Shown piece after piece: positions 43,310-48,264 of a DNA stretch of 64,000 nucleotides (position 1 is its first letter; each line of letters begins with the position of its first letter). This DNA is from Escherichia phage Ptacy1479. Under the pieces are notes generated by a model, which did not search any database, was not told the origin of the DNA, and worked only from the letters and a program-made list of their open reading frames with translations. The stretch lies in sequence record PQ863256.1; one strand, 5' to 3'. A program made the position numbers and the translations under genes.

Positions 43310-43519
43310 TTAATATTCCTTGATTGGGGATACCACAAAACCACCAAGAGGTGAGGTAAAAGATTTATGTAAGCTTATTTTGCTATAAATCTTTGGAGCC
43401 ATCTTAAGAGCCTTCTTAAAACGACGAGCATCTTTACGAGTAGCAAAATGCTCTGTAACAGGTATAGAATGGTCTTGGTAGATATAATACATCACCGTCC
43501 AGTATTTTCCCATAATCAA
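43310..43519 (-). CDS. small basic protein, member of 4-copy paralog family
   Basis: shares W.V...F.TRK.AR.FKK...H pattern with 44996/45205/45414. Confidence 0.45.
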   Translation of the reverse strand: MIMGKYWTVMYYIYQDHSIPVTEHFATRKDARRFKKALKMAPKIYSKISLHKSFTSPLGGFVVSPIKEY

Positions 43520-43788
43520 ACACCTAGTGCAGTAGTTAAAAATGCTTTCAGGTTTGCCTCAGTCTGCATACCAGAGAGGCTGTAGTGTGCGCCACTGTTA
43601 CGGTCAGGTACGACGAAAGCGGGTATGCTTCGTACACCATATTTAACAGCTTGTTCACGACCATCTCCTTCAAGGATATTGATCTCTTCCACTTCTACAT
43701 CAAACTCCCTAACAACCCTCTCAAAGGTGGGAGCCATTGCTTTACATGGAGCACACTGATCACTATAAAACTTAATTACTTTAGACAT
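43516..43788 (-). CDS. thioredoxin
   Basis: 90 aa; CAPC active-site CxxC at residues 12-15, thioredoxin-like size. Confidence 0.7.
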   Translation of the reverse strand: MSKVIKFYSDQCAPCKAMAPTFERVVREFDVEVEEINILEGDGREQAVKYGVRSIPAFVVPDRNSGAHYSLSGMQTEANLKAFLTTALGV

Positions 43789-43796
43789 GTAAATCC

Positions 43797-43976
43797 TTAT
43801 GCAGTCAGGAGGTGAAGCAGGAACGGGATAACAACAGCTACGATAACCATGATGGTTGATGCTGTTTGAATCTCACCTTTCTTATCAGGGGTTTCTTCAA
43901 TAAGCTTACCAGAAGCCCAATAAATACCACCACCAATAAAGATAGCCCAAATACCCCATACGATTGCTGATAACAT
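43797..43976 (-). CDS. small two-TM membrane protein (59 aa; not in track)
   Basis: MLSAIVWGIWAIFIGGGIYW and IMVIAVVIPFLLHLL helices; TAAGGA upstream of ATG. Confidence 0.4.
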   Translation of the reverse strand: MLSAIVWGIWAIFIGGGIYWASGKLIEETPDKKGEIQTASTIMVIVAVVIPFLLHLLTA

Positions 43977-44037
43977 ATATCTATATCCTTATAAATAAGT
44001 TCGCCCCACCTCGGGTTAGGAGACAGGGCGGAGGTTT

Positions 44038-44601
44038 TTAGTAAGACACGTCGCCACTTGAATGGGACATGTTGCTCTTGACGAAGTAGCAATACTTGCC
44101 AAGACCTTCATTAATTTCTTGAAGCATACTCTGATCGACAGGGTAGGATGCTAAATCGCCATCAAACTCATCCATCTTCTCAATAATACACATCAAGGTC
44201 ATGCACATATCAGAGAGCATACCGTCCATGTCTAGATCAGCATTACCCTCTGAAAACCAAGCATGGGAGAGGTAGTTAGCCGCTGTAGCATCCACCTTAA
44301 CACAGTGATATCGCATACGTTCAGCAATACGATCTCCTACTTGTCGTGCGTAATCTTCCATCTCATCAAACATACCATGAACACCCTGAAATCCTGCACC
44401 AGAGACGTTCCAGTGGTAGTTTTTAGCTTTGATATGCAAGAGTTCCATGTTAGCTTGTAAGCAGCTCAGGATGTGTTCTAGGCTGTTTCCACTAATCATA
44501 CCCTGCATTGTTTCAAGGCGAGAGATTGAAAGCTCAGACCGGTCTAACACACTATAGCTGTCACGACCAATCTCAGGTAAATCAAAAACATTCTTATGCA
44601 T
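44038..44601 (-). CDS. dps: Dps-family ferritin-like protein (start revised to Met17)
   Basis: KAKNYHWNVSGAGFQGVHGMFDE...DRIAER with ferroxidase-position His, His, Asp, Glu conserved. Confidence 0.7.
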   Translation of the reverse strand: MHKNVFDLPEIGRDSYSVLDRSELSISRLETMQGMISGNSLEHILSCLQANMELLHIKAKNYHWNVSGAGFQGVHGMFDEMEDYARQVGDRIAERMRYHCVKVDATAANYLSHAWFSEGNADLDMDGMLSDMCMTLMCIIEKMDEFDGDLASYPVDQSMLQEINEGLGKYCYFVKSNMSHSSGDVSY

Positions 44602-44923
44602 TTGGGTTTTCTCCATCAAGTTCAACTGAATTAGCAACATTACGTGCAATATTATCCATTACCTGCTGGGTAATTACGATGCAGTTCTGCGGGTCTACTG
44701 ACTTAGAACGCCCCATTTCAGGGTCATACACCTTAACTCGTTTAGCAGTTGAACCTGTAACCTGAAGAACCTTCAATAGATATCCCTGATTACCAATAGA
44801 CCAAGCAACAACATCACGATTCTTGATAAAGCGACCAAGCATATCACGATGATAAAACTGTTGCATCACCTTGGATTTTGTAATCTCTTCAGTGGGCGGG
44901 GCCACTTTACTCAAATCTAACAT
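44594..44923 (-). CDS. hypothetical protein
   Basis: AATGTATA-containing element about 39 nt upstream; 109 aa. Confidence 0.5.
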   Translation of the reverse strand: MLDLSKVAPPTEEITKSKVMQQFYHRDMLGRFIKNRDVVAWSIGNQGYLLKVLQVTGSTAKRVKVYDPEMGRSKSVDPQNCIVITQQVMDNIARNVANSVELDGENPNA

Positions 44924-44962
44924 AACTCTCTCCTGTAAAATACAAATTCTTATTGTACTCTA

Positions 44963-44971
44963 TATACATTT
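44963..44971 (-). promoter_or_regulatory. AAATGTATA variant of the promoter-like element
   Basis: 8/9 match to TAATGTATA, similar spacing to ATG 44923. Confidence 0.35.
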
Positions 44972-44995
44972 GAGAGTTACCATATCTACTACCAA

Positions 44996-45205
44996 TCAGT
45001 AGTAAATTACTTTAGACATAAAAGAACCCGAGCTAGGGTCTTCGTACCAGCGATGAATGTCAGCACTTTTAACAGTTCCTATTAGAGCTTTCACATTCTT
45101 TTTAGCGACACGAGCCTCTTTGCGAGTGTTAAACAGTTTGATATTATCTTTACCTAAGTGTTGTTTCTGTTCCCAAACAACACGAACAGCCCACATCTTT
45201 TTCAT
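44996..45205 (-). CDS. small basic protein, tandem paralog 1
   Basis: 69 aa; TRKEARVAKK motif. Confidence 0.5.
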   Translation of the reverse strand: MKKMWAVRVVWEQKQHLGKDNIKLFNTRKEARVAKKNVKALIGTVKSADIHRWYEDPSSGSFMSKVIYY

Positions 45206-45414
45206 TAGTAATGTACCTTTCCGCTGATATAAATACGACCAGAGGAATACTCCTTGGCCTTATGGATACTAATGCTCTTAGTTAAGTCCATATTGAACAT
45301 AGACTTTTTAAAATCTCGAGCTTGTTGACGGGTGGGCAGTGCAGTCATAGTCATACCACCTGATGCCCACTTAATCTTCGCTAACCAGAACTGTCTCATG
45401 GTGATTGGTCTCAT
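45205..45414 (-). CDS. small basic protein, tandem paralog 2
   Basis: 69 aa; TRQQARDFKK motif. Confidence 0.5.
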   Translation of the reverse strand: MRPITMRQFWLAKIKWASGGMTMTALPTRQQARDFKKSMFNMDLTKSISIHKAKEYSSGRIYISGKVHY

Positions 45415-45611
45415 TAATAATAAACCTTACTATTTGCCATAAAAGCACCTTCGCTATTCATGAAAGCTTTACCAATACTAACCTTGTTAAGTCTAAAAGT
45501 AGACTTGTATTGATTTTTGACCCTACGTGCGTGCTCTCGAGTATTAACAAAATCTACAGCTACCAACTCTCCAGACGTGTTATCATGTACACGAACAATC
45601 CACTTTTTCAT
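45414..45611 (-). CDS. small basic protein, tandem paralog 3
   Basis: 65 aa; TREHARRVKN motif. Confidence 0.5.
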   Translation of the reverse strand: MKKWIVRVHDNTSGELVAVDFVNTREHARRVKNQYKSTFRLNKVSIGKAFMNSEGAFMANSKVYY

Positions 45612-45835
45612 TTTACTAAACCCTTCATATAATCATAAAGATCATTAGAGGCTTTACCCCATTCAAGGTGCTTCTTATCCATATAACTCTTACAGGCTTC
45701 TTTACTGCTCTCAACGCATATATCAAATTGATGACATGCTCGACCAAAAGTTATAGCTTTTAACTGAACTTCGGTAGTTAAACCTTTAAGCTCTTGAAAC
45801 TCTTCTTCAGTCATTTTACACACCTTTGGATGCAA
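45608..45835 (-). CDS. hypothetical small protein
   Basis: 75 aa track ORF. Confidence 0.4.
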   Translation of the reverse strand: MHPKVCKMTEEEFQELKGLTTEVQLKAITFGRACHQFDICVESSKEACKSYMDKKHLEWGKASNDLYDYMKGLVK

Positions 45836-46361: not shown

Positions 46362-47708
46362 TTAGCGAATGTTTTGTGAATTTATTAAGTGGTCCAGTTC
46401 TCCACCAACCTGAGGCTCTAATACTTCAGGATTGTTGGCAACAAACCGATCAGCGAGACTGCGGCTGACAGTCTCAGCAAGTTCGTCATGAGAAGGAGTA
46501 TCAAGATCGGAGAGACTACCTACCACATCTTGAGCCACGCCTTCATCAGTCCAGATAACACGAGAAGGGGCGTTGATATCACCAACAGCGAAACCTTGAC
46601 CAGAGAACTGGTGACGGCTAACAGTAAAACCATTTGATCGACCACGAGAAGGACTAGATATCCATCTCTCCATAGAATCCCTTGTAATACCAAGAGCTTC
46701 TTCAAAAGATGTTCTACGAGTAGGGCTTTCTCTTCGTGACTCTTGTGCTCGACGCATTGCAGGGGCTACAAACACCCCTTCAATTGCATTGTGTCGGTTA
46801 GGTTCTTCCCGACCAAGCAGATCACCACCCGTGTTGGTTGTTAAGTTTGTCAACCCTTCAGACCAATATGCTCTTATCTGACTAGAGCCATGAACACTTG
46901 ACATTAACTGAATCTCTTCATAAGGGATTCCAAAGAATCGACTCATGTCACGATTAACACAATACTGAGCACTTGTTGTGTCCTCAATAAGAGCAACCTG
47001 ACCTCGTTCGTTGACCAGATGACTAACTGGTTGAGGTGTGGGAAGGTATCGAGTTTGGGCCATGTATTGATGTGCAGCTGCTGGAGAGGAAAATCTCAAC
47101 ACTTGCGAGTTAGGCCACTTCTTGTGAACATACCTGATTTCACGACTAGAAACAACCACTGGACAAGGGGCGGTCATAGCCAAATATCCATGAGAAGTCA
47201 TGAATAAGTTGTCAAGAGTCATCGCACCACGACACATCATAGGAAAATTATCCAATACCTCTTCAATAGAAGTAGGATAATTAAACATGAATTGGATACG
47301 AACCCCATTCCACTGAAACTCAATAATATCAGTGAATGTTAATTGAGAACTCCCAGCATAGGATTCGTTTGTAGCTTCAGCAAGAAGGGATGCATATTCA
47401 ACATCTTGTGACTCTAGCCATTCCTTCACATTACTTTCAATCTCTCTTCCAAGAGCTTGCCAACGATCAGTTGGGACGAAAGTATTTTGAGTTCTTGGTG
47501 TTTGTCCTCTGACAATAAAGATATCAATGTCATGTGGAGCTGTGTTATTAAGCACAGCATCACGAACAGCCCCACCAGTAATGATGGGACAGATACCGTC
47601 TGGAACTAAATTGTTGTTAATCAACTGTTCAATGAAGTGACGACCAACAGTGATATCAGGTTGTTGAGCAACCTTATCTTCAATTTGGTTAATCGGGATA
47701 ACAATCAT
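46362..47708 (-). CDS. nucleotidyltransferase with CCA-adding / poly(A) polymerase-type head domain (start revised to Met20)
   Basis: IITGGAVRDAVL...HDIDIFI matches GGxVRD...DxD head motif; C-terminal half Ser/Arg-rich, unassigned. Confidence 0.55.
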   Translation of the reverse strand: MIVIPINQIEDKVAQQPDITVGRHFIEQLINNNLVPDGICPIITGGAVRDAVLNNTAPHDIDIFIVRGQTPRTQNTFVPTDRWQALGREIESNVKEWLESQDVEYASLLAEATNESYAGSSQLTFTDIIEFQWNGVRIQFMFNYPTSIEEVLDNFPMMCRGAMTLDNLFMTSHGYLAMTAPCPVVVSSREIRYVHKKWPNSQVLRFSSPAAAHQYMAQTRYLPTPQPVSHLVNERGQVALIEDTTSAQYCVNRDMSRFFGIPYEEIQLMSSVHGSSQIRAYWSEGLTNLTTNTGGDLLGREEPNRHNAIEGVFVAPAMRRAQESRRESPTRRTSFEEALGITRDSMERWISSPSRGRSNGFTVSRHQFSGQGFAVGDINAPSRVIWTDEGVAQDVVGSLSDLDTPSHDELAETVSRSLADRFVANNPEVLEPQVGGELDHLINSQNIR

Positions 47709-47709
47709 T

Positions 47710-48264
47710 TTACATTTTCCAATATAATGAAGGTGGGTCGTAAGGGTCAAATCCCGTGAGTTCACACAAGAAAAGATAAACCTTAACAGTTAAGTTAACG
47801 TCCTGTTCACAATAAGTAAACATATCTTCAGTGAAAGCATCCCATGCTTCCTCTTGCTCACCGTAATCACCTTTAAGTTCCTCTAAGAACTCACCCCATT
47901 GCTTCAAACCATGACCTCTTGGGCCACGTCTAGGGTCGCCTTTCGGGTACTCAGGACTGTCACCAATACGGTCAGGTTTAAGATATCGACTAAGACATAA
48001 AGTGTCAAAGACGTTAAAATGATATTTAATCAAAGAAGGATACATCTTCTTCAGAGCAGGTAAGTCGAAGTCAATGATATTATGACCAACGAGCACATCA
48101 GCTTCTGTAAGTTTACGAATCCCATCTTCAATTTGGTGAGGCCGATAGCCCCACCTTTCACCAGATTCAACATCGAAGATATAAATACACCATACTCTAG
48201 TTATGTCATCGTACAGTGCATTACTCTCGATATCAAATGCAAACACTTTCTTTTTCTTTACCAC
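47710..48264 (-). CDS. 3'-5' exonuclease (DnaQ-like), stand-alone proofreading domain
   Basis: FDIES (Exo I), GHNIIDFD (Exo II), YCEQD (Exo III). Confidence 0.7.

Follow-up and report, generated by a model that had tools for sequence, protein, structure and literature searches.

Small genes belonging to PHROG 4939 are carried by phage phiEco32 and its relatives. The family is already catalogued with 'unknown function', and its members are recorded as hypothetical in about 100 genomes. They include gp69, gp70 and gp71 of phiEco32 and gp066 and gp071-073 of Escherichia phage Paul, all of them annotated as 'hypothetical protein', and the core set of 69 genes given for the phiEco32 subgroup includes phi32_69 and phi32_70 (PMC8948821 supplement). 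Here, four such genes, designated A to D, were analysed on the minus strand of a 64,000-nucleotide stretch of DNA from Escherichia phage Ptacy1479 (PQ863256.1; the whole stretch being termed the window). The source phage is a Kuravirus, a phiEco32-like prolate podophage of the Gordonclarkvirinae, and the region is 96% identical to that of phage Paul. The locus is a further member of this uncharacterised family.

The four genes and their relatives

Three of the genes form a tandem array, with the fourth dispersed. Paralog C (45414..45611, minus strand, 65 amino acids (aa)) heads the array and is the ortholog of phiEco32 gp71, paralog B (45205..45414, minus strand, 69 aa) lies in the middle and is the ortholog of gp70, and paralog A (44996..45205, minus strand, 69 aa) is the last and is the ortholog of gp69. 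Paralog D (43310..43513, minus strand, 67 aa) is situated between the genes for thioredoxin and ThyX; it is the ortholog of Paul gp066 and has no counterpart in phiEco32. The coordinates given for A, B and C in a preliminary description of this DNA were found to be correct, but D, which had been taken to begin at 43519, is better placed at 43310-43513. The ATG at 43513 is its most likely start, as AGGTG lies 7 nucleotides (nt) upstream and the same start is annotated in phage Paul and used by orthologs, with the TTG at 43519 being unlikely. Among orthologs of B, some begin at an internal methionine, giving a product of 64 aa. A Shine-Dalgarno sequence is present for each of the four genes. As had been described, the products are four related small basic proteins (65-69 aa, isoelectric point (pI) 9.9-10.6, net charge +7 to +10), and alignment confirmed that all of them end in tyrosine.

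All four proteins matched PHROG 4939 over its full length (profile positions 1-67 of 67), with E-values of 5.4e-27 for C, 2.2e-27 for B, 1.8e-26 for A and 8.5e-22 for D. In a MAFFT alignment their pairwise identity was 26-28%, with M1, W5, T27, R28, A31, R32, K35 and Y69 invariant. The shared motif of the preliminary description holds for its W, TR, AR and K, which do not vary, while its written form is approximate (B reads WLA and LPTR; C reads EHAR and SIG). Hidden Markov models (HMMs) were also built from orthologs of one lineage only and run against 1004 six-frame segments of the window. With each of these, the other three paralogs were the top non-self matches (E 1e-5 to 0.02), the next match having an E-value of at least 0.1. 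The similarity claimed for the four is therefore above chance, both in their matches to PHROG 4939 and in this retrieval of each lineage's paralogs. An HMM of the whole family identified exactly four members within the window. At the DNA level, a repeat is left between the N-termini of A and C (16/20 nt, with a spacing of 409 nt).

The ratio of nonsynonymous to synonymous substitution rates (dN/dS) within each of the four lineages was 0.1-0.4, which shows that the genes code for protein and are subject to purifying selection. A location of the genes on the opposite strand was ruled out, as conservation and dN/dS fit the minus-strand frames. A to D are four bona fide genes of PHROG 4939, a lineage-specific, amplified family that includes phiEco32 gp69/70/71, with the array accompanied by a dispersed fourth copy. 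It is hardly credible that these open reading frames (ORFs) are spurious, or decaying remnants of duplication with no function. They are very short, they were not detected in the proteomics of phage SU10, and many genomes do without C or D; set against this are the dN/dS values, frames that are intact in about 100 genomes, a confident AlphaFold2 (AF2) fold, the near-universal presence of A and B, and the Shine-Dalgarno sequence of each gene.

The three tandem genes had been described as coupled by a shared ATGA. The C/B junction (...TAT TAATG AGA...) and the B/A junction (...TAC TAATG AAA...) were instead found to be TAATG, in which the stop TAA and the ATG overlap by 1 nt. ATGA occurs as a 4-nt overlap at 45608-45611, between the stop TGA of a phrog_2347 ORF and the ATG of C. 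C, B and A are best regarded as a translationally coupled array, and the phrog_2347 ORF (45608..45814, minus strand, 68 aa), which is not a family member, appears to be translationally coupled to C through its ATGA. This ORF lies between the dCTP deaminase gene and C, and is present in the window phage and Paul and absent from phiEco32.

Comparison across 98 related GenBank/RefSeq records using tblastn showed B in all 98, A in 94, C in 64 and D in 40, with orthologs 62-100% identical across about 98 GenBank phage records. A word-indexed search of 5.8 billion proteins returned 99 clusters, each falling in one of four orthologous groups and at least 63% identical to one window paralog. An exhaustive profile HMM search of 1.84 billion representative proteins returned just 28 clusters at E < 1e-3, all of 47-79 aa, and the loci inspected from this search were all on phiEco32-like phage contigs. 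The 99 clusters in four orthologous groups and the 28-cluster profile search indicate that the family is narrow and, for the loci inspected, phage-specific. A scan of IMG/VR gave 3 loci only, all of known phages. Members occur in Gordonclarkvirinae podophages and a few relatives. BFVD adds members from Salmonella phage SE131, Aeromonas phage LAh_8 and Cronobacter phages GAP52 and CsaP_009. In Salmonella phage 7-11, one unannotated member was identified between gp054 and gp055 (locus L008, 949-1203, minus strand, approximately NC_015938 40948-41202; E 3e-5); it carries the motif ...WEVHF...KTRAEARAHKK... and is located elsewhere than the array position. The D ortholog of phage NJ01 (JX867715 51240-51440, 67 aa) is labelled 'putative ABC transporter', a clear misannotation.

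Copy number among relatives was found to range from 1 to 5. Four copies (C, B, A and D) are carried by the window phage, Paul, NJ01 and KBNP1711, with C, B and A found in phiEco32, and B, A and D, without C, in ECBP2. Among divergent metagenomic contigs, one copy was found on L009 and four on L011, one of which is a weak, additional copy located between the genes for the Dps-like protein and thioredoxin, while L012 has at least 4 tandem copies in an array that is cut by the contig end.

Within the A lineage the first 52 residues are 75-88% identical, yet at least four unrelated tails were identified (WYEDPSSGSFMSKVIYY, WIEFSEGTCMLSRNVYY, WFEFSGDRGSYISGDVYY and VCEDEKGLFLSKKVYY), one A-lineage tail resembling that of B (47-53% identity versus the usual 24%). 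Two tail types were found in the D lineage. The C-terminal hairpin appears, from these alignments, to be exchanged like a cassette. A of KBNP1711 and A of phiEco32 share 98% nucleotide identity, as against about 60% for B and C of the same pair, and whole paralogs likewise appear to have been exchanged between genera. An exact 15-nt direct repeat, AATTACTTTAGACAT, was noted at 43774-43788 and 45005-45019; read on the minus strand, both copies specify MSKVI, which lies at the thioredoxin N-terminus in one case and close to the C-terminal end of paralog A in the other. Chance could account for the repeat, as could microhomology remaining from a rearrangement that seeded copy D beside thioredoxin.

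Predicted fold and putative ligand

An AF2 model of A, for which a 37-sequence alignment was used as input, showed a single domain (pLDDT 85.4, pTM 0.70) consisting of beta1 (residues 2-11), beta2 (21-25), an alpha helix (28-39), beta3 (45-56) and beta4 (60-63). One face of the four-stranded sheet is uncovered by the helix. Independent BFVD models were found to superpose on the A model with TM-scores of 0.85 for the D type, 0.79 for the B type and 0.65 for the C type. The prediction for every family protein is one compact domain of approximately 65 aa, with its elements in the order beta-beta-alpha-beta-beta. Foldseek comparison of the A model gave no significant match in the PDB (best E 0.13) and family members only in BFVD. 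A profile search of PDB sequences gave no informative match, and neither did scans of the family proteins against Pfam, NCBIfam and PADLOC.

Residue conservation was computed over 61 family sequences, and was 100% for W5, R28 and R32, 98% for T27 and A31, and 97% for K35 and Y69. Positions 31, 34 and 38 of the helix are hydrophobic and hence probably buried, with positions 28, 32, 35, 36 and 39 being basic and lying on the same side of the helix. Basic residues are also conserved at positions 2, 3, 8 and 52, and there is no conserved acidic residue. In paralog A the first 43 residues have a net charge of +9 and the remainder has 0. When 45 small leftward ORFs are ranked by positive charge, all four family members fall within the top 8.

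The function that we favour, although tentatively, is binding of a polyanion, most likely nucleic acid (DNA or RNA). In the model, T27-R28-x-x-A31-R32-x-x-K35-K36 would cap the sole helix at its N-terminus and give it a basic stripe facing the solvent, and this stripe, along with basic residues 2, 3, 8, 39 and 52, would contact the polyanion, probably DNA or RNA. The hairpin, being variable and exchanged as a cassette, would probably set the specificity or partner of each paralog. Each paralog may act independently or as a homo-oligomer, an obligate hetero-complex being disfavoured because copy number varies. No sequence or fold match was found to known nucleic-acid-binding families (HU/IHF, Alba, Sso7d, dsRBD, RHH, CsrA and others), and the searchable literature holds no functional account of the family. 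The preliminary description had interpreted the genes as a paralogous family with a nucleic-acid-binding or regulatory role; the former stands, and the latter is plausible but unproven. A membrane protein was rejected as a candidate, as there is no hydrophobic segment.

As the main alternative, the same scaffold could instead serve host takeover or anti-defence, with the domain and its variable hairpin binding differing, fast-evolving host proteins while the basic helix docks on an acidic surface. A lineage-specific, amplified family with 1 to 5 copies would be in keeping with this, as would the presence of at least four C-terminal cassettes in the A lineage, the exchange of single paralogs between genera and a possible distant relationship to the scaffold of DUF2188 and HicB-N, the latter an antitoxin domain that binds proteins and the former a domain known from defence islands. 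The Gordonclarkvirinae are also reported to show striking resistance to restriction-modification, for which no mechanism is known (PMC11990801). Binding of such host proteins is nevertheless considered somewhat less likely, as the sole invariant polar residues are Arg, Lys and Thr, which are common to all paralogs and suggest a common ligand and not diverse ones, and no PADLOC or PDB matches were obtained. Most characterized small phage inhibitors and DNA mimics are acidic, in contrast to the pI of about 10 and the uniformly basic conserved surface of this family.

Gene neighbourhood and the P68 region

The order of genes on the minus strand is dCTP deaminase, an optional small ORF or HNH gene, C, B, A, a 72-nt intergenic region, a gp68-like ORF, a Dps/ferritin-like gene, a membrane ORF, thioredoxin, D and ThyX. 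This order was found to be kept in Paul, phiEco32, NJ01, KBNP1711 (Nieuwekanaalvirus) and ECBP2 (Suseptimavirus), and also on contigs L009, L011 and L012, with 1 to at least 4 tandem copies. The genes of the window have the placement of PHROG 4939, with the array between dCTP deaminase and the gp68/Dps-like genes, and D between thioredoxin and ThyX.

Such deeply conserved placement, with its fixed C-B-A order, would suit a hetero-oligomeric accessory complex for the neighbouring dCTP deaminase, Dps-like protein, thioredoxin and ThyX, in which the TAATG coupling of C, B and A sets the stoichiometry. The uncovered sheet face of the model would also suggest oligomerization. Such a complex is unlikely, however, as copy number is not fixed (ECBP2 is without C and phiEco32 without D, L009 has one copy and L012 at least four in tandem), and the single member of phage 7-11 lies at a different location.

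The intergenic region directly downstream of A (44924..44995, minus strand, 72 nt) carries TTGGTAG...AATGTATATA, with the core AATGTATA at 44963-44970. This sequence is the tAATGTAtA consensus of promoters recognized by gp36, the phage sigma factor, and in phiEco32 this site, which precedes gene 68, is the characterized gp36-dependent middle promoter P68 (PMC8948821, PMC12276001). Conservation of the P68 site was found to exceed that of the family coding sequence in all eight loci aligned. No further exact AATGTATA was found upstream on the minus strand within the window, and the array is therefore read as the tail of a long leftward unit. The P68 region would appear to mark the 3' boundary of the transcription unit of the array.

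By homology to phiEco32, coding sequences (CDS) 69-125 of SU10 were described as early and 25-68 as middle, and no terminator could be detected where the early genes end (PMC4281155). The paper describing phage 7-11 calls gp79 a middle gene, in slight disagreement with the early class of the SU10 paper. From these secondary sources, the array can be provisionally classed as 'early or delayed-early', with D in the middle-gene block. The family proteins would, on the polyanion-binding reading, be small early-expressed nucleic-acid-binding modulators in host takeover or in the early-to-middle switch. A role at this switch is plausible by analogy, the array abutting P68. A virion or histone-like packaging protein was rejected as a candidate, since the genes are in the early/middle block and their products are not among the SU10 proteins detected by mass spectrometry.

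A weak terminator-like hairpin of 5 pairs with a T-run was noted at 45025-45040 (minus strand), within the 3' end of A and approximately 60 nt upstream of the P68 core, and might attenuate read-through from the early unit. A second, strong G+C-rich stem-loop of 11 pairs (7 of them G-C) with a T-rich tail was noted at 44002-44030 (minus strand), directly after the stop codon (44038) of the gene for the Dps/ferritin-like protein; this structure, within the middle-gene block, resembles an intrinsic terminator or a hairpin that stabilizes RNA. In all loci examined, the gp68-like ORF (44594-44923, minus strand, 109 aa; phrog_10984, of unknown function) follows P68 as its first gene and is the invariant downstream neighbour of the array. 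Its product was detected by SU10 proteomics, and its function may be linked to that of the array. On the other side, the site that separates the array from the dCTP deaminase gene was identified as an insertion hot spot, holding the 68-aa phrog_2347 ORF in the window phage and Paul, nothing in phiEco32 and an HNH endonuclease gene on L011 (5367-5876). A 467-aa ORF at 46362-47765 (minus strand) is called 'nucleotidyltransferase' in relatives (CCA-adding-enzyme-like in SU10); it had no match in NCBIfam here, and one relative shows a faint match to Gad2 of Pfam. The authors of the BASEL collection speculate that the resistance to restriction-modification stems from a DNA modification for which the nucleotidyltransferase gene and dCTP deaminase are responsible (PMC11990801).

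Comparison with DUF2188, small phage regulators and PHROG 4939

DUF2188 (PF09954, 'YdaT-like'; PDB 5JN6) was compared in view of a likeness in the family motif. It is described as having a HicB-N-like simplified RNase H fold, is itself uncharacterised, and has been observed in the neighbourhood of CBASS, Thoeris and CapH/CapP-regulated operons. No match to the Pfam model of DUF2188 was obtained at E <= 1 for the four proteins, nor at E <= 10 for 37 members, with control DUF2188 consensus sequences scoring 98-111 bits against Pfam. Alignment to 90 real DUF2188 proteins using hhalign gave P = 1.8e-4 (probability 48%, with the distant-member alignment), and 4e-3 and 0.044 with other alignments; column-shuffled templates reached the real scores in 0/150 (best score) and 2/150 cases. 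The two align in register: W opens a strand, T caps the helix N-terminally, E-A falls within that helix, and I-H closes the strand that follows. The AF2 model of DUF2188 has the order beta-beta-beta-alpha-beta-beta, and the family would equal its beta2-beta5, with the conserved W, T and H equivalently placed. The family differs in being without the first strand of DUF2188 (N-terminal HVVP) and its DSHGNDP tail, and of the DUF2188 elements GW, T..EA and ELVIH, just W, T..(E)A and IH have counterparts. These results suggest that a remote relationship to DUF2188 is possible, as opposed to membership. A HicAB-type toxin-antitoxin pair or HicB antitoxin was rejected, as there is no HicA toxin partner and no structural match to HicB-N was obtained.

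Two further functions would draw on this likeness. The proteins could be a sponge for nucleotide-derived immune signals or small anionic ligands, with W and Y stacking on bases, T, R, R and K holding phosphates, and the paralogs taking different messengers. The invariant W, T, R, R, K and Y match the composition of a nucleotide pocket, and DUF2188, weakly similar, is found beside CBASS, Thoeris and nucleotide-cyclase systems. W5 and Y69, however, are at positions with a core-like hydrophobic pattern and so are probably structural, and the link to DUF2188 is itself unproven. No likeness to Acb2, Tad1 or Tad2 was found in PDB sequence or fold searches, and the family has no sequence or fold match to these or other known anti-defence sponges and inhibitors (Ocr-like proteins included), which makes a sponge distinctly improbable. 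With a similarly slight probability, the family could be a stripped-down, phage-captured DUF2188 that was amplified as decoys or sponges with differing C-terminal hairpins, neutralizing DUF2188-linked effectors or nucleotide signals and so aiding the broad immunity resistance of the Gordonclarkvirinae.

At present the family is an unremarkable one of hypothetical proteins, and its interest rises only if the anti-defence or DUF2188-decoy reading is true. A and B are near-core in a widespread, therapeutically used group of E. coli phages, and the position at the boundary of the early unit and P68 makes these proteins inexpensive candidates for host takeover, regulation or immune evasion. Testable features are R28, R32 and K35 on one helix face and the swappable C-terminal hairpin, and the BASEL isolates Bas86-94 are members infecting E. 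coli K-12 that are usable for genetics.

A comparison can also be made with small phage regulators of host RNA polymerase such as phiEco32 gp79, which are likewise small and are found in the same leftward early/middle block of the same phage group. The closest described system is PHROG 4939 itself, as found in phiEco32 (gp69-71) and Paul (gp066 and gp071-073). The window genes share its gene order, its neighbours and a full-length match, with nothing essential different. Where phiEco32 has three copies, the window phage has the four-copy version, C-B-A with D, as in Paul, NJ01 and KBNP1711.

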